This document shows, piece after piece, positions 3,284-20,687 of a stretch of 64,000 nt of DNA. The first letter of the stretch is position 1. Each line of letters begins with the position of its first letter. Under the pieces are notes generated by a model, which saw only the letters and a program-made list of their open reading frames with translations, was not told where the DNA came from and ran no database searches. Made by a program: the position numbers and the translations under genes. The stretch is taken from positions 32,001 to 96,000 of the forward strand of contig CAVPLM010000005.1 of the NCBI GenBank assembly GCA_963706025.1. Direction: 5' to 3'. The DNA is from an uncultured Actinomycetes bacterium. Lineage in GTDB: Bacteria; Actinomycetota; Thermoleophilia; RBG-16-64-13.

Positions 3284-4291
3284 ACGAGCAGGCCTACAAG
3301 CCCGACGACGGGTCCCAATCCGCCGCGAACCGTGCTCCGCTGAAGCCCGCCTACCTCATCTTGGGCGATGATCTGCCCAAGGTCGAATATGCCCTCAAAC
3401 GCCTCAAGTCCAGGATCGTGGAGCAGTCCGGCAGCGATCTCAACATCGATGAGTTCGATGCCGGGGAGCACGACGCTCTACAAGTCGTCAACGCCGCCAA
3501 CACCATGGCCTTTCTGGGCGGCACGAGGCTCGTGCTGGTGCAGAACGCGCAGGTGTGGCTCAAGGCCGACAAGTCCATCGTCGTCGGCTATCTGGAAGCC
3601 CCGGCGCCCGATGCCTGTCTCGCCCTGGTGGCGGAGAAGGTGCCCCCCGGGGACGTGTTGCGACTGGCCATGGAGAAGCACGGCGAGGTATTGGAGTTCC
3701 GAGCCCCGAGAGAGGGGGAGCTCCCCCAATGGTTGGTCCGCGAAGCAGGCCGGCGAGGGCTCAGACTGGGGCTCAACGAGGCCCGCTTCATGGTGCGACG
3801 CTGCGGGGACGATCAGAGCATCCTGCTGCGGGACCTGGAGAAGCTGCAGATCTACGCCGCCGGTCAGCCGGTCAGCGTCGACGACATCCGTCTGCTCACG
3901 ACGGCCACGATCGAAGCCAGTGTCTTCGACCTGCTCGATTCCCTTGCCCTGGGTCGGGGAGGGGCGGTCTTCTCGGCCGCCGACGACCTTCTCGCCTCGG
4001 GAGAGCGGGTCGAGGTGCTCTTCTACCGAATCCTGCAGGCACTTTCAGAACCTCAGCCGGGTGGCGGCCTTCCGGGAGGAGGGCATGAGCCGGGAGGCCA
4101 TTCAGGCCGAGCTCAAGATGAAGGCCTTCCCCACGGGCAAGTTGGTGGAGCAAGCGGCCCTGCTGGGTGCAGACGGGATCGCCCGGAGACTCGCCATCTT
4201 GGCCGACACGGATGCCCGCATGAAGGGGTCAGGCACTTTGCCGGCGGAGATGGAGCTGCAGCTATGTCTCGGCCGGATGTTGGCCGCCTGA
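3280..4291 (+). CDS. holA: DNA polymerase III delta subunit (apparent frameshift near 4038)
   Basis: PAYLILGDD, MAFLGGTRLVLV, VFDLLD motifs; C-terminus LADTDARMKGS lies in another frame; conserved comEC-holA-rpsT order. Confidence 0.85.
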
Positions 4292-7441: not shown

Positions 7442-7861
7442 CTAGAGTGCGCGCATCCGGTTGTTTTTAGGGTTGTGTTCGACCTCGGCGAGACCGAGCG
7501 CCTCCAGAAGCGGGGGCATGTACATCCCGAACCGGCCGCGCAGACCCTTCTTGAGCCCGTACCAGCCACCGACGGGGTTGTCTGCAGAGCGGCCCCACGC
7601 CTCGACGGTTCCCTCAGCGGCAGGCTTCTGCTCATCAGCGCTCCCGAGAGGTACCCAGTCGCCGCGCTCCTTGAGCATCGCGTGGAGATCCTCGATGGCG
7701 CGCAACCGATAGCTGAGCACCGTCTTGCCGACGACGCACACCAGGGCGGGCGGGTCGGCGGTCTCGTCGCGGTACATCTGATATTCCGACGACCCGCTCG
7801 GTGTCTTGAGAACCCAGGGATCCTCACGACTGCCGGAGCCGCTCAAACTCGTTGCCCCCAT
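7442..7861 (-). CDS. Conserved hypothetical protein (DUF6855-like), cassette gene
   Basis: DPWVLKTP...GTVEAWGRSADNPVGGWYGL...NNRMRA; GGAGG RBS before ATG 7861; GTTAGGC core site at 7940-7934. Confidence 0.7.
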   Translation of the reverse strand: MGATSLSGSGSREDPWVLKTPSGSSEYQMYRDETADPPALVCVVGKTVLSYRLRAIEDLHAMLKERGDWVPLGSADEQKPAAEGTVEAWGRSADNPVGGWYGLKKGLRGRFGMYMPPLLEALGLAEVEHNPKNNRMRAL

Positions 7862-8159
7862 ATCTCGACCTCCACCGGTAGGGCGCATTGACACTCCGCG
7901 AATCTGCCGCCTCTATACCCGCCGGAGCGTCTCGCCTAACGCGAGAATCAGCGACGGTTGTAGGACGGGGCCCGTCCGCTCCGCGGCACGATCACGGCAG
8001 CACTCTCTTCTCTCGGGGCGCGTTCTGCATAGCCACGATCCTGCGCCAAGTGGTGTCGTCGCCGGACAGAACAAGGCCGTAGTGCTCTCGAACATCGACC
8101 GCGACGGCGCGTAGGGCGGCATTCGCGGTGCCGGAACGGCGTGCCCCCGAAGGCTCCAC

Positions 8160-8900: not shown

Positions 8901-8954
8901 GGGGAGTCTCCCGAGGCGGCCTCAGGTGGCTTCGCCTGTTACGACGCCTGCGCC

Positions 8955-9034
8955 GCCCAACGAATCAGCTCAGCGGCGCGGCGCTGTCTGCCGCGTTCGC
9001 CGGAGCGCTGAGCTGGGCCCCTTCGCGTTGGTAT
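8955..9034 (-). other. Degenerate attC-like site
   Basis: GCCCAAC at 8955 followed by inverted repeat CAGCTCAGCG...CGCTGAGCTG enclosing a GC-rich inner stem; the other core box is imperfect. Confidence 0.45.
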
Positions 9035-9507: not shown

Positions 9508-10293
9508 TTATGCTTCGAACGTGATTTCGGCTTCCATGAAAGTGCAGGCCTGACCGTACAATAGAACCCGATCCCCTCTCAATTCGCATTGGATAGAACC
9601 ACCTCGCTTAGAAACCTGCAGAGCACTGAGCATAGATCGATTGAGACGCCCTGCCCAATACGGCGCGAGCTGGCAATGTGCGGCTCCGGTCACTGGGTCT
9701 TCATCAACTCCGAGTTTCGGGGCGAAGAAGCGGCTCACAAAGTCGACACTATTCCCTGGCGCGGTGATGATGACTCCGCGCAAATCAAGTTGCCGAAGCA
9801 AGGACATCTCAGGCGTGATGTTTCGCACGACTTCTTCGCTCGAGAACACGAGCAGATAATCGTCTGCGGCGAGCGTTTCCACGGGCGTAGCCCCAAAGGC
9901 CCTCAGTAGCGCCGGCGGTGGATCACAAGGCACCGGCCTGCGTCCGGGGAAGTCCATCTCAAGGTCCGAGCCGGAGCGTCTGACCGAGAGCACTCCGCTC
10001 CTGGTGAAGAACGAAATGCTGTCGGCTGTGTGGTTCAGGTGAGAGAAGAGGACATGTGCAGAGGCAAGGGTTGCATGCCCACAGAGGTCGACCTCCGAGA
10101 CCGGAGTGAACCACCGTAGTTCATACCCCTCGGCAACAGGCACGAAGAAAGCCGTTTCTGACAGATTGTTCTCTTCGGCAATAGCCTGAAGTAAGGAATC
10201 CGACAGCCACGCGGCCAAGGGAACCACGGCGGCGGGGTTTCCCGCGAAAGCACGCGAGGAGAATGCATCAATCTGATACTGCTTCAGTTTCAT
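9508..10293 (-). CDS. PhzF-family isomerase/epimerase, cassette gene
   Basis: DAFSSRAFAGNPAAV, SETAF, EVDLCGHATLA, EDPVTGAAH; GTTAGAT core site at 10319-10313 just upstream. Confidence 0.92.
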   Translation of the reverse strand: MKLKQYQIDAFSSRAFAGNPAAVVPLAAWLSDSLLQAIAEENNLSETAFFVPVAEGYELRWFTPVSEVDLCGHATLASAHVLFSHLNHTADSISFFTRSGVLSVRRSGSDLEMDFPGRRPVPCDPPPALLRAFGATPVETLAADDYLLVFSSEEVVRNITPEMSLLRQLDLRGVIITAPGNSVDFVSRFFAPKLGVDEDPVTGAAHCQLAPYWAGRLNRSMLSALQVSKRGGSIQCELRGDRVLLYGQACTFMEAEITFEA

Positions 10294-10525: not shown

Positions 10526-10670
10526 CTAGAGAAACCGTTCCACCACGATTTCGTCGATGTCCCGGTCCGCGACCCTGAGGTGGCGCTCGGCGACGCCCTG
10601 GCGGCGATACGCGGCGGCCACGTAGGTGCCGAGGATGCCGACGTGGTCGACGCTCTTGTTCGGCTGATCA
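10526..10670 (-). pseudogene. GNAT acetyltransferase fragment
   Basis: DHVGILGTYVAAAYRRQGVA motif A without the rest of the fold. Confidence 0.45.
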
Positions 10671-11066
10671 TTCCTTGTAGTACTGCTTGAACTCCTCTGC
10701 GGGTTCCCGGTCTGAATAGATGTAGAGCATGACTCCGTTCGGGTCGAGAATGGCGAATCCGCGATCACCCCACGGATGATCTGCAAGCAGCATGACAGGT
10801 GTAAGGCCGCTGGCAGTCATACGGTCGCACTCGGCATCTACGTCTTCCACACAGAAGTTGTACATCAGGCCTGCCGGATTGAACGCCGGAGGGCCTTGCT
10901 CCTGCGGGGCTATAAACTGCAGTTCTGATGTCTCCTTTCCGAATCGGAGGTTCACGTACCACCCGCAATCGAACGTGACCTTGGCTCCGAAATACTTCAC
11001 GTAGAAATCGCACGACTCCTCCACCTTCGCCGTCGTGATGCATGCAGACAGTGTGTGTGCGATCAT
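10668..11066 (-). CDS. VOC/glyoxalase family protein
   Basis: FYVKYFG, DHPWGDRGFAILDPNG. Confidence 0.88.
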   Translation of the reverse strand: MIAHTLSACITTAKVEESCDFYVKYFGAKVTFDCGWYVNLRFGKETSELQFIAPQEQGPPAFNPAGLMYNFCVEDVDAECDRMTASGLTPVMLLADHPWGDRGFAILDPNGVMLYIYSDREPAEEFKQYYKE

Positions 11067-11777: not shown

Positions 11778-11800
11778 TGAGTGTAGTACCTAAGTTCTGT

Positions 11801-11864
11801 GCCTAACGTTCAAGGTGAGGAGGGCGCCGCTTTCGGCGCGTCCCTCTCGATCGAAATGTTAGAA
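11801..11864 (-). other. Complete attC site (64 bp)
   Basis: Minus strand reads TTCTAAC ATTTC GATCGAGAGGGACGCGCCGAAAGCGGCGCCCTCCTCACCTTGAAC GTTAGGC, with R''/L''/L'/R' boxes and a central hairpin. Confidence 0.85.
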
Positions 11865-11892
11865 GGCAAATTGCCGAGCAGGGACCATTTGC

Positions 11893-12078
11893 CTCGTGAC
11901 CACGCAGACGCTCTACCACCTCGGTCGTGACTGGTATGGGACGCGGATGGACCTCGATTGGCAACCGGCGACCGAGACCGAAGCGACAGACATGTTCGCG
12001 AAGCACGGGCTGGTCGGGGATTTTTGGTCGCTGGTTTAGGAGGTGCCACCGAGCACTTCGAGCGAACGCGCAGACGGT
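11893..12078. repeat. 186-bp inverted repeat, copy A (reverse complement of 14693-14878)
   Basis: Sequence comparison; the same peptide strings appear in opposite-strand ORFs 11927+ / 14086- and 11810- / 14644+. Confidence 0.93.
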
Positions 12079-12158
12079 CGTCCCTCTGGAAGGCATCCTC
12101 GCGCAACTATCCGTGTCCGTCGGTAGTATCATGGGCAGTACTCTAGGAGGTACCATAG

Positions 12159-12330
12159 ATGAGCAGATTCCCCGCTATCGTCCCCATCTCGGACTTGCGT
12201 CAGGATGCGGCGGGCGTCATCAAGCGGGCGGCGCTCTCAGGGGAGCTGGTGTTCATCACCCAGCGGGGGCGACCGGCTGCCGTCATAGTGGACGCCCAGA
12301 CCTATGAGCGCACGCAACGCCAGTACGAGC
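12159..12330 (+). pseudogene. Truncated Phd/YefM antitoxin, paralog of 15937..16212
   Basis: IVPISDLRQDA...VFITQRGR; similarity stops after about 57 aa and no toxin follows. Confidence 0.65.
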
Positions 12331-13278: not shown

Positions 13279-14538
13279 ATGAAGCAGGACTTCCTTGCCC
13301 GTCATGCGACCGAAACCGTGCTGCAACGTCTTCAAGTCTTCCGCGTCGTGGTCGTCACCGGGGCGCGCCAGGTGGGCAAGTCGACGCTTGCGCGGCTGGT
13401 GGTCGAGCAGCTCGGTGGGTCGTACCTCACACTCGACGACCCGCTGACGCTGTCCCAGGCCGCGGGAGATGCCGATGGTCTGGTGGCTTCGACTACCGGC
13501 CTGACGGTGATCGACGAGGTCCAGCGGGTTCCCGACGTGCTGCGGGCGGTCAAGCTCTCGGTCGACCGCGACCCGACGCCCGGCCGCTTTCTGCTCACAG
13601 GCTCGGCGAACCTGCTGGGCATGCGGGCGGTCACGGAGTCGCTGGCGGGCCGGGCGGTGTACCTCGACCTGCTCCCTCTCTCGTGGTCGGAGTCGGTGGG
13701 CGGGACGCGACCCCACACTATCGACCAGGCGTTCTCCGCCCAATCGGCCGATGAGTTCGCCGCATCGTTGCCGGCCGCCGGTCCCGGCGCGGGTGAGGAC
13801 GCGCGCCGGCGGGCGCTGTGCGGCGGGATGCCGGAGGCCTTTCGCCTTGACGCGGACAGCCGTCGCGCCTGGTACGACAGCTACCGGCGCACCTTCCTCG
13901 AACGCGATCTGCGACAGCTCTCGGACATCAGCCGCGTACCGGAGTTCGGTCGCGTCCTGAGTCTCGCTCTGCTCCGGAGCGGGGGGCTGCTCAACAAGAG
14001 CGATATCGCCGCCGACGCTCAGGTGTCGCACTCCACGGTCGATCGGTACCTCAACCTCCTCCAGGTGGCCTACCAGATCTGGCTGCTACAGCCGTTCTTC
14101 CCCAACGTCACCAAACGACTGGTGAAGGCGCCGAAGCTGTACGCGATCGACAGCGGCGCGGCCGCTTGGGCCGCGAATGCGTTCGACTGGCGCGCAGCCG
14201 TGGCGTCGGCCAAAGATGGCGCGCTTATGGAGACCTTCGCGCTTTCGGACGTCATGGCGTGGGACGGGCTCTCGGGCGCGTCTCGATATCATTTCTGGCG
14301 GACGGGAGCCGGCGCTGAGGTCGACCTGGTGATCGAGCGTGGTGAAGCTGTCGTGGCGATAGAGGTCAAGAGCGCGGTGACTCTTACACGCCACGACGCC
14401 AGTGGTCTGCGTGCGCTCCGCGCCGACCTGGGTGGTCGCTTCCGGCTCGGCATCATCGCGTACCTCGGTCAGGACGTCCGGGTGGTCGATCAGACGATCG
14501 TGGCCGTGCCGCTGGCCTCGCTGCTTGGGGCGACCTGA
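13279..14538 (+). CDS. AAA+ ATPase with DUF4143 domain (AAA_14 family)
   Basis: GARQVGKST, IDEVQR, LTGS, ESLAGR, GGMP, KAPKLYAIDSG, EVDLVIE...IEVK. Confidence 0.9.
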   Translation: MKQDFLARHATETVLQRLQVFRVVVVTGARQVGKSTLARLVVEQLGGSYLTLDDPLTLSQAAGDADGLVASTTGLTVIDEVQRVPDVLRAVKLSVDRDPTPGRFLLTGSANLLGMRAVTESLAGRAVYLDLLPLSWSESVGGTRPHTIDQAFSAQSADEFAASLPAAGPGAGEDARRRALCGGMPEAFRLDADSRRAWYDSYRRTFLERDLRQLSDISRVPEFGRVLSLALLRSGGLLNKSDIAADAQVSHSTVDRYLNLLQVAYQIWLLQPFFPNVTKRLVKAPKLYAIDSGAAAWAANAFDWRAAVASAKDGALMETFALSDVMAWDGLSGASRYHFWRTGAGAEVDLVIERGEAVVAIEVKSAVTLTRHDASGLRALRADLGGRFRLGIIAYLGQDVRVVDQTIVAVPLASLLGAT

Positions 14539-14544
14539 GGGCGA

Positions 14545-14700
14545 GTTCAGGCGAAGAGCTCCGCCGCCGAGCTCGCCGGCGATGTTTCCGTCGACCCAGC
14601 TGCCCGGACCGATGAGGAACACGCTCGCTGGCTCCTCGCCGAGATGCTCGAGTGGCACTGGCGCGAGCAGAAGGTGGTCTTCTGGGAGTACTACCGTCTG
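14545..14700 (+). pseudogene. Internal fragment of a TM0106-family nuclease/helicase
   Basis: DPAARTDEEHARWLLAEMLEWHWREQKVVFWEYYRL. Confidence 0.5.
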
Positions 14701-14878
14701 CGCGTTCGCTCGAAGTGCTCGGTGGCACCTCCTAAACCAGCGACCAAAAATCCCCGACCAGCCCGTGCTTCGCGAACATGTCTGTCGCTTCGGTCTCGGT
14801 CGCCGGTTGCCAATCGAGGTCCATCCGCGTCCCATACCAGTCACGACCGAGGTGGTAGAGCGTCTGCGTGGTCACGAG
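14693..14878. repeat. 186-bp inverted repeat, copy B
   Basis: Reverse complement of 11893-12078; includes the 3' end of the merB-like gene. Confidence 0.93.
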
Positions 14879-15391
14879 CGCACCGAGGCTCAGTCCTTCT
14901 GCATCCAGCCACGAGAACACGTCTGCTTCCGACCGGAACGCCGTCATGTTCGCTCAAGTGAAGACGATGTCGTCCCAGAACTGCTTCGCGGGAACGAGGA
15001 AGTGCACGATGGCGTCGCCTTCGGCCACCCCATCGCGCACCGTAAGCGTGATCGGCTCGCCGGTCGCCGGTGAATGCGTGTGGAGCGTGCCGTCGCCAAG
15101 AATCGCGAGGATCGACAGACCGTCCCACACGCAGTTGGCGAACCACGTTCGCTCGCCGATGGTGACAAGGAAATCCGAGTCGATACCCGAGAACGGATGC
15201 GCCATTCTCACGCGATCGGTGCCAGGAACTAGCACGAGGCGATGCTCGTCTGCCAATGAGTGAAGCGCCGCCGAGGCGTGGGACTCCGCCACACCGAGCA
15301 TGTCGCCGATGGCGGCGGCCGTCGGTGCCTGTCCGGTGTCGCGAAGCGTCTGGATCACGGTCGCCCGCACCTGCCGCTCGAACGAGTCCAT
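14732..15391 (-). CDS. MerB-like organomercurial lyase family protein, probable selenoprotein (TGA at 14956-14954 read as Sec; 219 aa)
   Basis: HTH N-terminus, MAHPFS, FANCVWDG, WDDIVFT*ANMTAFRSE; ORFs 14954..15391 and 14732..14947 are in the same frame; SECIS-like hairpin follows the TGA. Confidence 0.8.
14915..14951 (-). promoter_or_regulatory. Bacterial SECIS-like hairpin
   Basis: GAACAUG/CGUGUUC lower stem, UUCC/GGAA upper stem, GGUC apical loop starting 19 nt after the UGA. Confidence 0.7.
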
Positions 15392-15548
15392 ATGGTCTGC
15401 TCCTCCGAATCGGTCGACGGCAATGGTGCTAACAATACTTCGACAGTCTGCCGGAATCCGCCTTGAAATGACCCAAAAGCGTTTTCGTCGCGACTCCTCA
15501 GCCGCCTTTCCAGGGCTCGGGAGCGTCGAGACGCGCCCGGTGTGTGAT

Positions 15549-15637
15549 GCAGTTGAGCAGCAAGCTGCAGCCCGCTGCGAGTGGATCAGAGCGTAACGCG
15601 GAGGCCGTGGTTTGTCTGCTCGAACTGCTTGTTAGGC
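15549..15637 (-). other. attC site lacking its R' core
   Basis: GCCTAAC overlaps the toxin stop codon; L'' arm GCAGTTCGAGCAG pairs with CTGCTCAACTGC (one extrahelical base); no terminal GTTRRRY. Confidence 0.7.
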
Positions 15638-15940
15638 GTCGCCGGCTTCGGCTGGCTCATCAGGAATCTGCGCCCCATGCCATGCCGCCACGACCCAGAC
15701 TGTGTTGCCCTTGACACGGTAGAAGAAGCGGTACGGGTCGACAATGACTTCGCGGAACTGGAGATCAGGGAACTCGCGAACCACGCGACCCGACTCGGGG
15801 AATTCCGCGAGCCGGGCAAGTACGGTATTCACTCTCTGCTGGAATGCCCGGGCTGCGGACGGTCTGTCTGCGCGGACATAGGCGAGAGCCGCCAGGAACT
15901 GGATCCGGGCCGGCGGCGTGAACTGGACCCTCAGGGTCAC
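15632..15940 (-). CDS. RelE/ParE-family toxin
   Basis: RLAEFPESGRVVRE, FREVIVDPYRFFYRV, VVAAWHG. Confidence 0.88.
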   Translation of the reverse strand: MTLRVQFTPPARIQFLAALAYVRADRPSAARAFQQRVNTVLARLAEFPESGRVVREFPDLQFREVIVDPYRFFYRVKGNTVWVVAAWHGAQIPDEPAEAGDA

Positions 15941-16212
15941 GACTCGCCCAGAAGCGCCTCGGCCTCCGCCATCACGGTCTCCAGGTCGTAGCCCACGCCG
16001 GCCTCGATGTCGGCCTCACCGCGCGCGAGCAGGCGCAGGATCTCGAAGTTGTGCTGGCTGCGCTCGTAGGCGCCCGCGCTGACCAGGACCGCAACAGCAC
16101 GCCCGCGCTGCGTGATGAACACCGGTTCACCGGAAGCAGATGCCCGCTTCAGGATGGCCGAAGCATCCTGACGCAGCTCGCTGATTGGGACGATGTTGGG
16201 GACTGTACTCAT
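15937..16212 (-). CDS. Phd/YefM-family antitoxin
   Basis: IVPISELRQDA, PVFITQRGRAVAVL; 4-nt overlap with toxin. Confidence 0.88.
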   Translation of the reverse strand: MSTVPNIVPISELRQDASAILKRASASGEPVFITQRGRAVAVLVSAGAYERSQHNFEILRLLARGEADIEAGVGYDLETVMAEAEALLGES

Positions 16213-16254
16213 CAATGGTACCTCCTTCACTAGCGTTCATTGTACCACTGATGA

Positions 16255-16748: not shown

Positions 16749-17820
16749 TCACCCGGCCTGGATCTCCTCCGCCATCTCCAGAAACCGGCAGAACGCATTG
16801 GCCAGCTGCATCTGGCGGGGCGTGCGGCAATCGACCTCGAAGAGACGCGGGCTTGCCACCAGGATGCAGGTCGCCCGCGCCCGCGAGGTGGCCACGTTCA
16901 GGCGGTTGAGGCTGTAGAGGAACTCCATGCCCCGGGGGGCCAGTTCGGGCGAGGAAGTCGCCAGCGAGAAGACGACCACCGGCGCTTCCTGCCCCTGGAA
17001 CCTGTCCACGGTGCCGACACGATGGCCCGGAAGACGAGTGGTCACATCGGCCACCTGGGCGTTGTAGGGGCAGACGATGAGCACCTGCTGGGCGTCCAGC
17101 GCACTCTCCTCGCCCTGGGCGTCGACCCAGAGCACGCCGTCCGTCAGCGATTCCACCGGCCGGCCGACGGCCTCCACCTCTTCGGGGGAGGAGTTCTGGT
17201 TGCCCTCGTGCTCCACAGGCAGGAACCAGAGCCCCGCGCCTGCAAGGGGCGTCGGCCCCCGCAGAGCCTGGTTCTCGAAACCCGGTCTCGACTCCAGCCG
17301 GCCCTCGCAGAAGAGCTCGGAGGTGAAGAGACAGATATCGGGATGCAGACGCCAGGTCTCGTCGAGAAAGAGTCCGCGATCGTCGGCGATGGTCTGACGG
17401 CCCTGAAGCAGGTGCTCGAGGGCCGACACTTCCGTGCCCTCGGGATGGCTGCCTTGTTGTGGTTGCTCCAGCTGCTGAGGGTCGCCGAGGAGGACGATGC
17501 TCTGTGCCGCCTGAGCGACCGCAATGACGTTCGCGAGCGACATCTGCCCGGCTTCGTCCACGAAGAGCACGTCCACGGCATCGCGGAAGTCAGGACGCGC
17601 CCACACCCAGGCAGTGCCGGCCGCCACCTGAGCCTGGCCAACGGCGACGCACTCGAGAAGGACGGCGTTGTCGGTCAGCTCGAGTATCTCCCGGTAGGTG
17701 TCCTCCGGATCGCCTTTGACCTTCTGGGCGCAGCACAGTTCGACTCCTTCGTCCGCCAGCCGGGCGATAGCGTTGATGTCATCGACGGTGCCGAACTTGC
17801 CTTCCACCCAATGAAGATCG
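16749..17820 (-). pseudogene. C-terminal SF1 (Upf1/DNA2-like) helicase part of a TM0106-family protein
   Basis: VDEAGQ, LGDPQQL, TWRLHP, PYNAQ, GTVDRFQGQE, RLNVATSRA; Walker A and N-terminal nuclease absent. Confidence 0.75.
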
Positions 17821-17913
17821 GCCTCGTCGCGAAGCTCAGAATCCTGGGGTGGGTAGCTGTAGCGGCAGAGCGGCGAGGACGAGCCTGGCGCGCATGCTCG
17901 GACAACGCGCGAA

Positions 17914-17937
17914 GTCGGCTGCACGCGCTTGTTCGAA
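17914..17937 (-). other. attC left half-site
   Basis: TTCGAAC AAGCG CGTGCAGCCGAC 12 nt after the toxin stop; right arm missing. Confidence 0.55.
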
Positions 17938-17949
17938 CTACACTCGCGA

Positions 17950-18246
17950 TTATCGGCGGCCACGCCAGTAGTAGGGTCGCTTCCGCTGATGCGCCACGGC
18001 CAGAATCCTAAGGGAGTTTTCACGAGTCTCGTAGATGAGGCTGTACGGGAACTTGGCGAGCACGAGCTTGCGAACGTCGTTAGTGACTTGCAGGGCAGCT
18101 CCGGGGTACTGCCGGATGCGCGCGAATCCGGTATCAACCTCATCTGTGAAGATCAATCCAAGACCAGGGCTCTCGCGCTCGTAGTAGTCGACGGCGTCAT
18201 TGAACTCACGACGAGCGTCAGGGTGAACCTGCAGCACCCGCGTCAC
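17950..18246 (-). CDS. ParE/RelE-family toxin
   Basis: HPDARREF..AVDYYE..PGLG, KFPYSLIY, ILAVAHQRKRPYYW. Confidence 0.9.
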   Translation of the reverse strand: MTRVLQVHPDARREFNDAVDYYERESPGLGLIFTDEVDTGFARIRQYPGAALQVTNDVRKLVLAKFPYSLIYETRENSLRILAVAHQRKRPYYWRGRR

Positions 18247-18467
18247 TTGAGGCGAGCCCTAGCCTCAGCGATGACCTGATCCGCTGGAATGGTCTCAACG
18301 AGGCCGGCATCGATCTCCGCGCTGCGGCGTAGCACCTCTTCGACCCACAACTGCTCGACCTCAGCCTCCGAGAGGGACTCAAGGCTGCTCAGGAGTTCGT
18401 GAGCCATGGAAGCACGATCCCTGGCACTGAGCATGAGGGCTTCGCGCATCAGTTCGTCAACGGTCAT
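18243..18467 (-). CDS. Putative addiction-module antidote (TIGR02574-like)
   Basis: [21 protein letters not shown]...W.EE..RR..EI..G; overlaps toxin. Confidence 0.85.
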
Positions 18468-18547
18468 ATCACACCTCGCAAACGCCGGAATGCTCTCGCC
18501 GATATTGTACCTCGCGCATCTGACGCCGAACCCCTACCGAGTGTTGG

Positions 18548-18566
18548 TGCGAACAACCATTATCCG
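18548..18566 (-). other. Candidate attI simple site
   Basis: Minus strand CGGATAA-TGGTT-GTTCGCA (7-5-7 layout); the GTTCG core matches TTCGAAC at the end of the first cassette; flanked by direct repeats GCCGAACCCC(T)ACCGA at 18525 and 18571. Confidence 0.45.
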
Positions 18567-18716
18567 GTCTGCCGAACCCCACCGATGCAGCGCCTGGGTG
18601 TCTTCGTGGCGCCGGCTCCAGCTTCCCCCGGAAAGGGGCGGAAAGCGCTGGGAACCGCACGACGCTATGTCCCGCCCCGACCGTCGTTCGACAATAAACA
18701 GACTGTATATGCAGCC

Positions 18717-18812
18717 CTACAGAGCGTCAAGCGGGCTAGGGACAACCTGTCCGCCCCGGTTGAGCACATGGGTGTAGATCATGGTGGTACGCACATCGTT
18801 GTGGCCCAGCAG
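18717..18812 (-). pseudogene. intI: Integron integrase C-terminal remnant (31 aa)
   Basis: [31 protein letters not shown], the characteristic IntI box II and tail with catalytic His and Tyr. Confidence 0.88.
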
Positions 18813-18866
18813 TCGCCCCGTCGCCAGGCGGCGCGATCCGCCCCGTGCGCTAGAATACGTCCCCTC

Positions 18867-20687
18867 ATGGGACGCTTCGACCACATCCGCAACTTCTCCA
18901 TCATCGCCCACATCGACCATGGGAAATCCACCCTGGCCGACCGCATCCTGCAGATCACCAACACGGTGGCCGAGCGGGAGATGCGGGAGCAGGTGCTCGA
19001 CCGCATGGACCTGGAGCGTGAGCGGGGCATCACCATCAAGGCCCAAGCCGTCCGCATCTACTACCACGCCGAGGACGGCCGGGAGTATCAGTTCAACCTC
19101 ATCGACACCCCGGGCCACGTGGACTTCAGCTACGAGGTGTCCCGGAGCCTGGCCGCCTGCGAGGGAGCCATCCTGGTGGTAGACGCCACCCAAGGCGTGG
19201 AGGCGCAAACCCTGGCCAATGCTCTCCTTGCCCTCGAGAACGACCTGGAGATAGTCCCGGTGCTCAACAAGATCGACCTGCCCGGCGCCGAGCCGGAGAA
19301 GCGGGCGGAGGAGATCGCCAGCGTCATCGGCTGTCCGCGTTCCGACATCCTCCATATCTCGGCCAAGACCGGTGAAGGCGTGCCGGCGGTGCTCGAGGCG
19401 TTGGTGCATCGGATCCCGCCGCCTCAGGGCGACGCCGATGGGCCCCCGCGGGCGCTCATCTTCGATTCGGTCTACGACCAGTATCGGGGCGTCGTGGCCT
19501 TCGTGCGCGTGCGCGACGGGAGCTTCCGCAAGGACGATCCGTTGCTGGCTATGGTCACGCGGCGCCGCAGTGACATAGAAGAGGTGGGCATCTTCAGCCC
19601 CGATATGCTCAAGACCGACATTCTGCACGCCGGCGAGGTGGGCTACATCATCCCCGGCATCAAAGAAGTAGCCGATCTGCGGGTGGGCGACACCCTCACC
19701 CATGCCCAGCGGGCCGCCGCCGAGCCCCTTCCCGGCTACCGCGAAGTCACTCCCATGGTGTTCTGCGGCCTATTCCCCATCGACGGCGAGGATTACCCCG
19801 ATCTGCGCGACGCTCTGGAGAAGCTCAAGCTCAACGATGCCTCCCTCTTCTACGAGCCGGAGACGTCCAAGGCGCTGGGCTTCGGTTTCCGCTGCGGGTT
19901 CCTGGGCCTGCTGCACATGGAGATCGTCCGGGAGCGCCTGACGCGGGAGTTCGGTCTCGACCTGCTCGCCACCACCCCCAACGTGCGCTACGAGATCGAG
20001 CTGCTCACGGGAGAGGTGCTTTCCATAAGCAATCCCGTGGATTTCCCCGAATCCGGTGACATCAAGGAGGTGCGCGAGCCCTACATCGCCGCCACCATCT
20101 TGGTGCCCGCGGAATTCGTGGGTCCGGTGATGGAGCTGTGCAACGACAAGCGCGGGCGCTTCGCCCACATGGAGTACCTGACCTCCGATCGGGTACGTCT
20201 CGATTACGATCTGCCCCTGGCGGAGATCGTGCTCGACTTCTTCGACCTGCTCAAGACCCGCAGCCGCGGCTACGCCAGTCTCGATTACGAGCTCAAGGAC
20301 TTCGAGCCGGGCGACCTGGTGCGTCTCGACATCCGCATTGCCGGCGAGATCGTCGACGCCCTCAGCCTTATCGTGCACGCCGACCGCGCTTACGCCATCG
20401 GGCGGGGGCTGGCCGAGCGGCTACGCAAGAAGATCCCCCGGCAGATGTTCGAGGTGGCCATACAGGCGGCGGTGGGAAGTCGGATCATCGCCCGGGAGAG
20501 CGTGGCCCCTTTGCGCAAGGACGTGCTGGCCAAGTGCTACGGGGGCGACATCACCCGCAAGCGCAAGCTGCTGGAGAAGCAGAAAGCCGGCAAGAAGCGC
20601 ATGAAGATGGTGGGGACGGTGGAGATCCCTCAGGAGGCTTTCCTGGCGGTCCTCGATCTGGGCGAAGGGAAAGAGGGGAAGAGATGA
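18867..20687 (+). CDS. lepA: Translation elongation factor 4
   Basis: [54 protein letters not shown]. Confidence 0.98.

Follow-up and report, generated by a model that had tools for sequence, protein, structure and literature searches.

A stretch of 64,000 nt from the genome of an uncultured Actinomycetes bacterium (Thermoleophilia, RBG-16-64-13; assembly GCA_963706025.1, contig CAVPLM010000005.1, positions 32,001 to 96,000 of the forward strand), called the window in the following, carries on its minus strand a MerB-like gene that is interrupted by an in-frame TGA. Comparison of the frame with its homologs indicates that this is very probably a single intact gene, the product of which is a selenoprotein of 219 aa from the MerB superfamily; to this product we provisionally ascribe a lyase reaction. 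The UGA at 14954-14956 is almost certainly read as selenocysteine (Sec), judging from the sequence comparisons described below. The predicted protein belongs to a group of homologs that is called the T-U clade here, after the residues at the Sec position.

The minus strand from 15391 to 14732 forms one frame with a single in-frame TGA, as seen from the calls of open reading frames (ORFs) and from the translation. The initial annotation of the window had pointed out that two separately called ORFs share this frame and are separated by TGA-GCG-AAC. Translation confirmed this, and TGA-GCG-AAC is the sole spacer between the ORFs of 145 and 71 aa. The read-through product, with TGA translated as U, has 219 aa and contains FWDDIVFT-U-ANMTAFRSE, in exact agreement with the peptide and the length given in that annotation. 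The following features belong to the gene:

14732 to 15391, minus strand: predicted complete MerB-like selenoprotein gene, with the ATG at 15391-15389 and the terminal TAG at 14734-14732
15391 to 14954, minus strand: 145-aa ORF, stop included, from the ORF list
14947 to 14732, minus strand: 71-aa ORF, in the same frame as the 145-aa ORF
14954 to 14956, minus strand: UGA codon 146, equivalent of MerB Cys159 according to the structure alignment and the homologous loci
15400 to 15406, minus strand: Shine-Dalgarno-like GGAGGAG, 8 nt 5' of the ATG, read from the sequence
14951 to 14915, minus strand: hairpin resembling a selenocysteine insertion sequence (SECIS), GAACAUG/ACGGCG/UUCC-GGUC-GGAA/GCAGA/CGUGUUC, from the centroid fold
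14938 to 14927, minus strand: apical hairpin with UUCC at 14938-14935, the GGUC loop at 14934-14931 and GGAA at 14930-14927, which also encodes F152-R153-S154-E155

The window protein possesses every column conserved across 81 Sec-type rows of the homolog alignment. In a 9-row alignment the GGAGGAG is shared by the window and the homologous loci L030, L032 and L029 (in L029 offset by two alignment columns). L031 shows GGGGGAG, L037 and L040 show GGAGGAT, and L033 and L034 have the AGGA core only. A promoter scan of 14500-15700 found no sigma-70-like promoter, so that the window copy has no mapped promoter, a point against the reading. Among sequencing runs, none contains half or more of the words of 14650-15450, and no run of RNA is listed among those that contain them. 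Of four runs compared at 85% likeness, the one with raw reads gave 0 reads, whereas contigs of related organisms in X1 and X4 cover the area of the TGA. Among the rows listed, none has a letter other than TGA at 14954-14956, and no conclusion on base calling or expression was drawn from this.

For identification of homologs at the protein level, a word-indexed search of 5.8 billion proteins was applied. It gave 604 matches, of which the best 120 were examined, with identities from 94% down to 61%. Exactly 145 aa were found for 108 of these 120 proteins, and 118 of them end at or before the UGA column. The records P0002 and P0009 run through and show W at this column. At the DNA level, the gene was found in 5 of 41 related genomes (own genome included), and all five full-length matches have one TGA inside. 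A scan with one genome per species yielded 150 relatives. The best 80 of the 150 were kept, a selection that weakens the count given below, and with three loci from relatives they form a set of 83 distinct loci (L024 and L029 represent the same place). Three loci do not contain the UGA column: L089 lies at a contig end, L090 carries a deletion of residues 111-175, and L093 breaks off at an attC site after residue 138. The TGA is present at the same alignment column in all 80 distinct loci that hold this column, never as TAA or TAG, and is preceded by the context [FYHV]-T in each of them. According to the record titles, the carriers of these loci belong to at least nine phyla, with Actinomycetota, Acidobacteriota, NC10/Methylomirabilota, Desulfobacterota, Chloroflexota, Gemmatimonadota, Marinimicrobia, Gammaproteobacteria and Bacteroidetes named.

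These data bear on the possibility that the TGA is an ordinary stop, so that the 145-aa and 71-aa products are separate or a nonsense codon has turned the gene into a pseudogene. Gene callers and RefSeq indeed give proteins of 145 aa, and in the window an ATG follows three codons past the TGA. However, all 80 loci from the different phyla have the TGA, none has another stop codon in its place, and an ATG at codon +3 occurs in only 7 of the 80 loci (9 of 80 within 12 codons). A separate downstream gene is not tenable because so few loci have an ATG soon after the TGA. Furthermore, the Pfam domain and the alignment with MerB continue through the TGA, and the residues downstream of it are conserved while their synonymous sites are free. 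At G170, L181, R189, G210 and L211, for example, the residue is kept and the codon entropy is 1.8-2.3 bits. The 145-aa product would be devoid of the equivalent of Cys159. In 74 of 79 loci, the frame reaches its real stop 72-76 codons past the TGA; this stop is TGA in 45, TAG in 30 and TAA in 4 of the 79, and one locus has no stop within 300 codons after the TGA. An ordinary stop or a pseudogene is contradicted by the comparative data and was rejected; we regard it as extremely improbable.

An exhaustive HMMER search of 1.84 billion cluster representatives revealed 1227 relatives, the best 150 of which were classed by a simple-pattern script. About 69 of them end at the column (71 were flagged, two of which are full-length proteins ending in T), 51 have Cys, 2 have Trp and 22 are unclassed fragments. 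Four show other single letters, which are probably mis-hits of the pattern. Among 38 full-length homologs with 26-40% identity, the UGA column holds Cys in 35, W in 2 and R in 1. The initial annotation had named Trp or the lack of a conserved Cys at this column as the outcome that would speak against it. The Cys in 35 of 38 homologs favours the Sec reading.

The Cys-type homologs, annotated as "alkylmercury lyase family" proteins (220-235 aa, e.g., P0124 and P0125), have the same length and architecture as the window protein at 26-40% identity. They differ from it by the Cys at the Sec column and by a variable Asp90 column, which holds D, C, E and other residues. A tree from a quick IQ-TREE run, on which the grouping is based, separates 33 of 34 Sec rows as a single group from the Cys rows (SH-aLRT 88, branch not starred). 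The remaining Sec row, L082, is placed near two Cys rows.

A recoding of the UGA as Trp or Cys, by a variant code or by near-cognate read-through, has to be considered in view of the W at the column in P0002, P0009, P0126 and P0189. The W of P0002 looks like an artefact of translation with TGA as W, because the same record also has W where the window has its terminal stop. The representatives P0126 and P0189 are possibly records that were translated in this way as well. Moreover, in 45 of the 80 loci it is a TGA that truly terminates this gene, the homologs have Cys and not Trp, and the complete Sec machinery is present together with a covarying SECIS. We consider such a recoding hardly credible. 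TGA as Trp was rejected on the basis of the Cys homologs, the TGA terminators, the Sec machinery and the SECIS.

The membership of the protein in the MerB family is indicated by a match to Pfam MerB PF03243 over residues 67-187, which spans the TGA (E 4.6e-22; 78.8 bits, gathering score 27). When a profile built from 55 family members was used, it matched MerB2 (5c17) with E 2.6e-24 and MerB (3f2g) with E 9.3e-15, with the same pairing of residues. In the alignment to the solved structures, C87 and D90 correspond to Cys96 and Asp99 of MerB, and U146 falls on the Cys of MerB2 (5c17) and on Cys159 of MerB (3f2g). The assignment of the triad C87, D90 and U146 is based on this sequence and profile alignment to solved MerB structures. 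The initial annotation had taken the motif FANCVWD as the first Cys/Asp pair of MerB and the UGA as the substitute of the second Cys, and both assignments are borne out by the alignment; the latter also agrees with the Cys found in 35 of 38 homologs. None of the 81 Sec-type rows has lost C87 or D90.

With MerB and MerB2 (PDB 1s6l, 3f2g and 5c17) the window protein shares homology over about 170 residues and the positions of the catalytic triad. It differs from them by the predicted Sec in place of Cys159, by the lack of a merA, merR, merT and merP context of the gene and by an additional C-terminal stretch. This extension (residues ~195-219) is conserved with the pattern W-x-x-x-A-x-x-x-F-x-x-x-G-L-x-G-x-F-W and has no counterpart in the aligned MerB. 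A weak match to a winged-helix domain was observed at residues 10-53 (E 0.2). The cut-offs of the NCBIfam MerB equivalog models (NF009710 and NF033555) are missed, with 23.1 vs 193 bits and 20.2 vs 200 bits, which is a point against the lyase reading. Since these scores are far below the cut-offs, the protein is, by sequence, a relative of the characterised MerB and not its orthologue.

Directly after the UGA lies the hairpin listed above. It was obtained as the centroid structure when the 62 nt after the UGA were folded, and its loop, which begins with G, starts 19 nt past the UGA. The hairpin had already been noted in the initial annotation; it is present in the window as described there, and it is conserved with a covarying stem among the homologs. 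Its energy is ordinary for the composition (z = 0.27; 116 of 200 shuffles fold as well or better), which counts against a SECIS, and the claim therefore cannot rest on one sequence. Only the subclade of the window shares the lower stem GAACAUG/CGUGUUC. A search in Rfam gave no match for the hairpin except for a chance match with E 0.28.

The evidence for the SECIS comes from the codons +6 to +9 after the UGA in 81 distinct rows, window included, compared with conserved control columns of the same alignment:

F152: TTC in 80 of 81 rows; codon entropy 0.10 bits, control Phe67 0.74 bits
R153: CGG in 78 of 81 rows, AGG in the remaining 3; codon entropy 0.23 bits, controls Arg9 2.36 and Arg189 2.27 bits
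S154: TCG in 75 of 76 Ser rows; codon entropy 0.10 bits, control Ser68 1.79 bits
E155: GAA or GAG in 80 of 81 rows

Codon bias does not explain the frozen codons of the hairpin, because the conserved control columns vary. Counted from the U of the UGA, the apical loop spans G23-C26. Five rows show a variant loop, but G23 and G24 are invariant. In the stem, pair 17-32 is CG in 38, UA in 16, GC in 9 and UG in 3 rows, and pair 16-33 is GC in 35, GU in 14 and CG in 12 rows. The covariation score of the stem is 0.250 compared with a shuffle mean of 0.137; none of 500 shuffles reaches 0.250, and slid partners score at most 0.121. The TGA in 80 of 80 loci, the frozen synonymous sites and the covariation of the stem together show that the hairpin is not due to chance. 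In L055:701-754, both sides of pair 21-28 are changed (UUUC/GAAA) together with a Glu to Lys exchange in the F-R-S-E motif. This is the one natural double change in the apical stem, and L055 carries it; its genome (G046) is one in which selA was not found.

In Escherichia coli fdhF, the SECIS is a stem-loop right after the UGA inside the ORF, with a G-rich apical loop about 20 nt downstream. The apical loop of fdhF also reads GGUC. In contrast to fdhF, the apical hairpin described here is nearly invariant across phyla and coincides with the F-R-S-E motif. Fixed in RNA and protein alike, this motif represents a clean case of dual coding. The selD gene of the host (C5:742679-743602) itself codes for a selenoprotein with SHGSG-U-ACK, followed by a hairpin of similar form, CCCCAA-GGAC-UUGGGG, with the loop one base farther from the UGA.

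For decoding of the UGA the host has to possess the Sec machinery. The host genome is a metagenome-assembled genome (MAG) of 30 contigs, which is 92% complete with 7.3% contamination. Searches for selA, selB, selC and selD had been proposed as a check of the Sec reading, and all four were found above their cut-offs: selA with 506 bits, selB with 304 bits, the tRNA-Sec with 79 bits and anticodon TCA, and selD with 388 bits, the latter with its own in-frame TGA on the contig of the window (C5). Beyond the host, selA was detected in 9 of 10 other carrier genomes tested. It was not found in the carrier genome G046, which does not fit the reading. Among the relatives, 30 of 41 contain selA, including all 5 carriers of the gene. 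This co-occurrence is weak evidence and tempers the argument, because the base rate of selA among the relatives is high.

The initial annotation had also stated that Sec-containing MerB-like families have been described. This holds insofar as SaoL exists, but SaoL is a different clade. In the preprint of Haft and Gwadz (2023; bioRxiv 10.1101/2022.07.06.499078), SaoL is described as the marker of a nine-gene SAO locus in anaerobes, its Sec is aligned to Cys159 of MerB, and the truncated forms average about 197 aa compared with 213 aa of the full protein. Reviews from 2022 and 2026 list one MerB-like selenoprotein family, which is equated with SaoL/NF040728 and has a C-U motif. SaoL and the window protein share the fold family PF03243, the Sec at the Cys159 position, the counterparts of Cys96 and Asp99 and the routine truncation at the UGA in databases. 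However, the present clade has the motif [FY]-T-U instead of C-U (T-U in 81 of 81 rows), and its members have 145 aa in the truncated and 219 aa in the full form. Its hosts are Actinomycetota, Acidobacteriota, Methylomirabilota, Gemmatimonadota and others, and its genes stand alone in varied contexts or as an integron cassette. The nine-gene SAO neighbourhood was not seen around the 80 loci, in a comparison of neighbour clusters that did not include a separate search for each Sao family. NF040728 gave no match to the window protein and none in the host genome at E<=10. Two other clade members reach 43.7 and 37.9 bits with this model, compared with its cut-off of 140.

In NCBIfam release 20.0, no model claims the window protein. 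A clade member of Geomonas sp. RF6 (WP_230997545.1) is listed in RefSeq as a 145-aa "alkylmercury lyase family protein". No description of the T-U clade was found in the literature searched, a scope that excludes supplementary family tables. The GOS paper and the ISME J 2016 paper, which are cited for the MerB-like family, contain neither "MerB" nor "alkylmercury" in their main text. In the main text of the deep-Sep and BSepDB papers, the supplementary tables of which were not covered, MerB, lyase and mercury are absent. The comparison of the predicted proteins has thus shown the T-U clade as a large Sec-type clade in many phyla, which is distinct from SaoL and annotated in truncated form at 145 aa. 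On this sequence evidence it is a second Sec-bearing lineage of MerB-like proteins, widespread and unannotated.

Based on these data the following mode of action can be proposed. Ribosomes would read the UGA at 14954-14956 as Sec under the guidance of the in-ORF SECIS 19 nt downstream, and SelB, tRNA-Sec, SelA and SelD of the host would serve this decoding. Sec146 would replace the catalytic Cys159 and sit together with Cys87 and Asp90. A soft metal or metalloid may be bound between the thiolate of Cys87 and the selenolate of Sec146, and the carbon-metal bond may be cleaved by protonolysis with Asp90 as the acid, in analogy to MerB. The protein would presumably act alone, without a mer operon. 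One subclade including the window copy would represent an integron gene cassette that carries its own SECIS.

The main rival to a lyase is a protein with the MerB fold and a Sec that has a role in binding, trafficking or sensing of a metal or metalloid (Hg, Cu, As or Se) by Cys87 and Sec146. The missed NCBIfam cut-offs, the weak winged-helix match at residues 10-53 and the conserved C-terminal extension without a counterpart in the aligned MerB would fit such a role. Haft and Gwadz further state that MerB binds other metals and becomes a copper binder by the change of one residue. The genomic context points in the same direction, as there is no MerA above its cut-off and there are no mer or ars neighbours. 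On the other hand, Asp90, which corresponds to the proton donor Asp99 of MerB, is found in every one of the 81 Sec rows and is variable in the Cys-type homologs. This strict retention in the Sec clade supports catalysis, and Sec is usually found at catalytic sites. We therefore prefer the lyase and consider a pure binding function rather unlikely, though it deserves to be taken seriously.

Several observations on context weigh against the lyase. No MerA was found above the cut-off in the host genome (best match 371 vs 454 bits). A shared neighbour was not found among 529 flanking ORFs of 80 loci, where the largest cluster comprises 7 loci. By our own reasoning, a very tight Hg-Se bond might also hinder the release of the product. 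The top neighbour clusters are a histidine kinase, a radical SAM protein, a GlmS-like protein, an ABC ATPase, a Cu/Zn SOD, and GNAT, Usp, ACPS and laccase-like proteins; a mer, ars or sao theme is absent from the neighbour clusters of the 80 loci. No mer operon was found near the gene in the window. The absence of a mer operon claimed in the initial annotation is hence in line with the unrelated neighbours and with the lack of a MerA at cut-off. A MerA-like frame of the flavoprotein disulfide reductase type is located at C5:1128505-1129793; it has two TGA and one TAG inside, extends over several frames and is probably a pseudogene.

The gene context was further analyzed in relatives with 87-90% identity. 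Homology at the DNA level to these relatives is found only from 15433 to ~14700 (ends at 14690-14717), and the flanks are unrelated. The homology to L030 and L031 begins exactly at 15433, with the G of GTTAGCA, and the cassette boundary sequence GTTAGC is common to the window, L030, L033 and L040. On the 3' side of the stop the relatives have GGTGCTAAC-AAGCGC...GCGCGGTGCGTTAGGC, an attC site of ~90 nt. From 12 such sites, including some of the relatives' own, the attC covariance model R1 was built. It gave 42 matches in 7 of 83 loci, 39 of them in the orientation of the gene. L030, L031, L037, L039 and L040 show a clear attC directly after the stop with 62-84 bits, scores of a model that was partly built from these loci. 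In L040, 10 attC sites are located within 6.6 kb and the gene lies between the sites at 2879-2972 and 3663-3756. In L037, the gene is likewise flanked by attC sites in an array of 9 sites. The other cassettes of L040 encode a GNAT protein, Phd/ParE, a MazF-like toxin, a 2'-5' RNA ligase-like protein and unknowns. The same Phd/ParE pair is present in L040 and in the window, on opposite sides of the gene.

Matches to an integron integrase (IntI) were obtained in 5 of 5 carrier genomes searched, four of them with matches above the family cut-off. In the genomes of L030, L031, L037 and L040 (G047-G050), an IntI match lies 0-22 kb upstream of the gene and is co-oriented with it, where the matches were taken to be on the contig of the gene because the contig numbers match the record names and, for L030, the coordinates fit. 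Three of these four matches are above the cut-off; the one of L030 (G047) is a truncated 5' part with 241 bits. The IntI match in the genome of L093 could not be placed on the contig of the gene. The gene thus represents a true integron cassette in several MAGs of Actinomycetota, where it lies between attC sites downstream of intI. The proposal that a selenoprotein cassette moves with its own SECIS and without a mer operon is supported by these relatives, in which the gene of L040 and L037 lies between attC sites. Since a bacterial SECIS is part of the ORF and moves with it, even a recoded gene can take the form of an integron cassette. The integrons of L031, L037, L040 and L030 belong to MAGs of Actinomycetota (Thermoleophilia and others), with intI co-oriented with the cassettes. 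Their arrays reach at least 22 kb from intI, and the attC sites of ~90 nt are very uniform within each genome.

The location inside an integron array, which had been assumed for the window, applies fully to the relatives L040 and L037, but the array of the window itself is eroded. Its remains are listed below:

15427 to 15640, minus strand: attC-like site of the ParE/Phd cassette, with R'' GCCTAAC at 15637-15631 and R' GTTAGCA at 15433-15427
14672 to 14731, minus strand: remnant of the gene's own attC, 5' half only, from the alignment with the attC sites of the relatives
15632 to 16230, minus strand: neighbouring cassette with a Phd/YefM antitoxin (16230 to 15937) and a ParE toxin (15940 to 15632)
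18720 to 18812, minus strand: intI remnant, the last 31 codons, TIGR02249 positions 284-315, 42 bits
11893 to 12099, plus strand: inverted partial second copy that comprises residues ~171-219 (protein identity of 98% for 171-219) and the beginning of the attC

With model R1, the only significant attC in the window is found at 15531-15640 (23.2 bits, E 1.8e-4). The 5' boundary of the MerB-like cassette is the G|TT at 15433/15432. Marginal attC matches with E 0.06-0.16 are located at 11797-11867, 8951-9021 and 17632-17679. Searching the window for a 15-mer attC motif gave 3 matches compared with 1.72 expected, which is at chance level and is the reason why the covariance model was needed. In the gene's own attC the R'' is degenerate (GGTGCCACC vs GGTGCTAAC in the relatives), and the site is cut near 14690-14672. 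The antitoxin and the toxin of the neighbouring cassette match Pfam PF02604 (Phd/YefM) with E 2.8e-17 and PF05016 (ParE) with E 9.5e-15, respectively. The intI remnant lies upstream of the minus-strand genes and is co-oriented with them. Its 31 residues match the end of an IntI frame on contig C3 without exception, and the 114 nt of 18699-18812 are 97% identical to C3:452845-452958. This IntI frame on C3 (C3:452227-452958) is itself incomplete at the N-terminus and does not contain the first ~100 model positions.

Two of these observations are unfavourable to a mobile cassette in the window. The gene's own attC is degenerate and reaches 6.2 bits with E 3.4 at 14641-14730 (model R1), and intI is reduced to a stump, so that the window copy is probably no longer mobile.

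It is conceivable, though at present a doubtful proposal that we put well behind the reading preferred above, that the T-U clade is a lyase for organometals of anoxic soils and sediments that is independent of a mer operon, possibly a demethylase for methylmercury, and that it is passed on by integrons between Sec-decoding phyla. If this is true, the Sec would give the T-U lyase a very high affinity at trace levels of substrate, and the SECIS within the ORF would make the gene a self-contained unit for integrons among Sec-decoding phyla. The T-U clade would then be a missing player in the environmental turnover of methylmercury, visible to merB surveys only as fragments, and the gene would be the first selenoprotein known as an integron cassette. 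In the available parts of the literature searched, no report of a selenoprotein integron cassette was found. According to a review (PMC10114901), the role of MerB homologs in the degradation of methylmercury by Geobacter bemidjiensis is still open; a member of the T-U clade exists in Geomonas.

Hundreds of database entries of the clade are cut at 145 aa and do not contain one of the catalytic residues. Surveys of merB-like genes in soils, sediments and paddies may therefore count, or miss, a selenoenzyme. A second lineage beside SaoL with Sec at the same Cys suggests a recurring advantage of a selenolate at the metal site, for which the gene would offer an easily expressed single-gene model.

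The window shows further traces of rearrangement around the gene. The partial second copy forms a 207-nt inverted repeat (11893-12099 and 14672-14878) with arms that are 96% complementary, and blastn gives 189 nt at 99.5%. It looks like the result of an inversion between two cassette copies or an artefact of the MAG assembly. The repeat brackets 2.6 kb with the only plus-strand genes of a variable block, namely a DUF1697 fragment, an unknown ORF and a DUF4143 AAA ATPase. A diverged partial copy of the Phd gene (12145-12312, 73% DNA identity to 16059-16226) adjoins the partial MerB-like copy and is cassette debris.

The variable block extends over ~7.4-18.2 kb and is flanked by core genes, with an M23 peptidase on one side and lepA on the other. 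On the minus strand it contains four further genes:

7442 to 7894, minus strand: DUF6855 protein
9508 to 10293, minus strand: PhzF-like isomerase
10668 to 11066, minus strand: glyoxalase-family protein
16749 to 18143, minus strand: truncated SF1 helicase (AAA_12)

The lepA frame (18399-20687) begins about 150 codons earlier than the LepA domains need and overlaps the intI stump on the opposite strand. This 5' extension is probably not translated.

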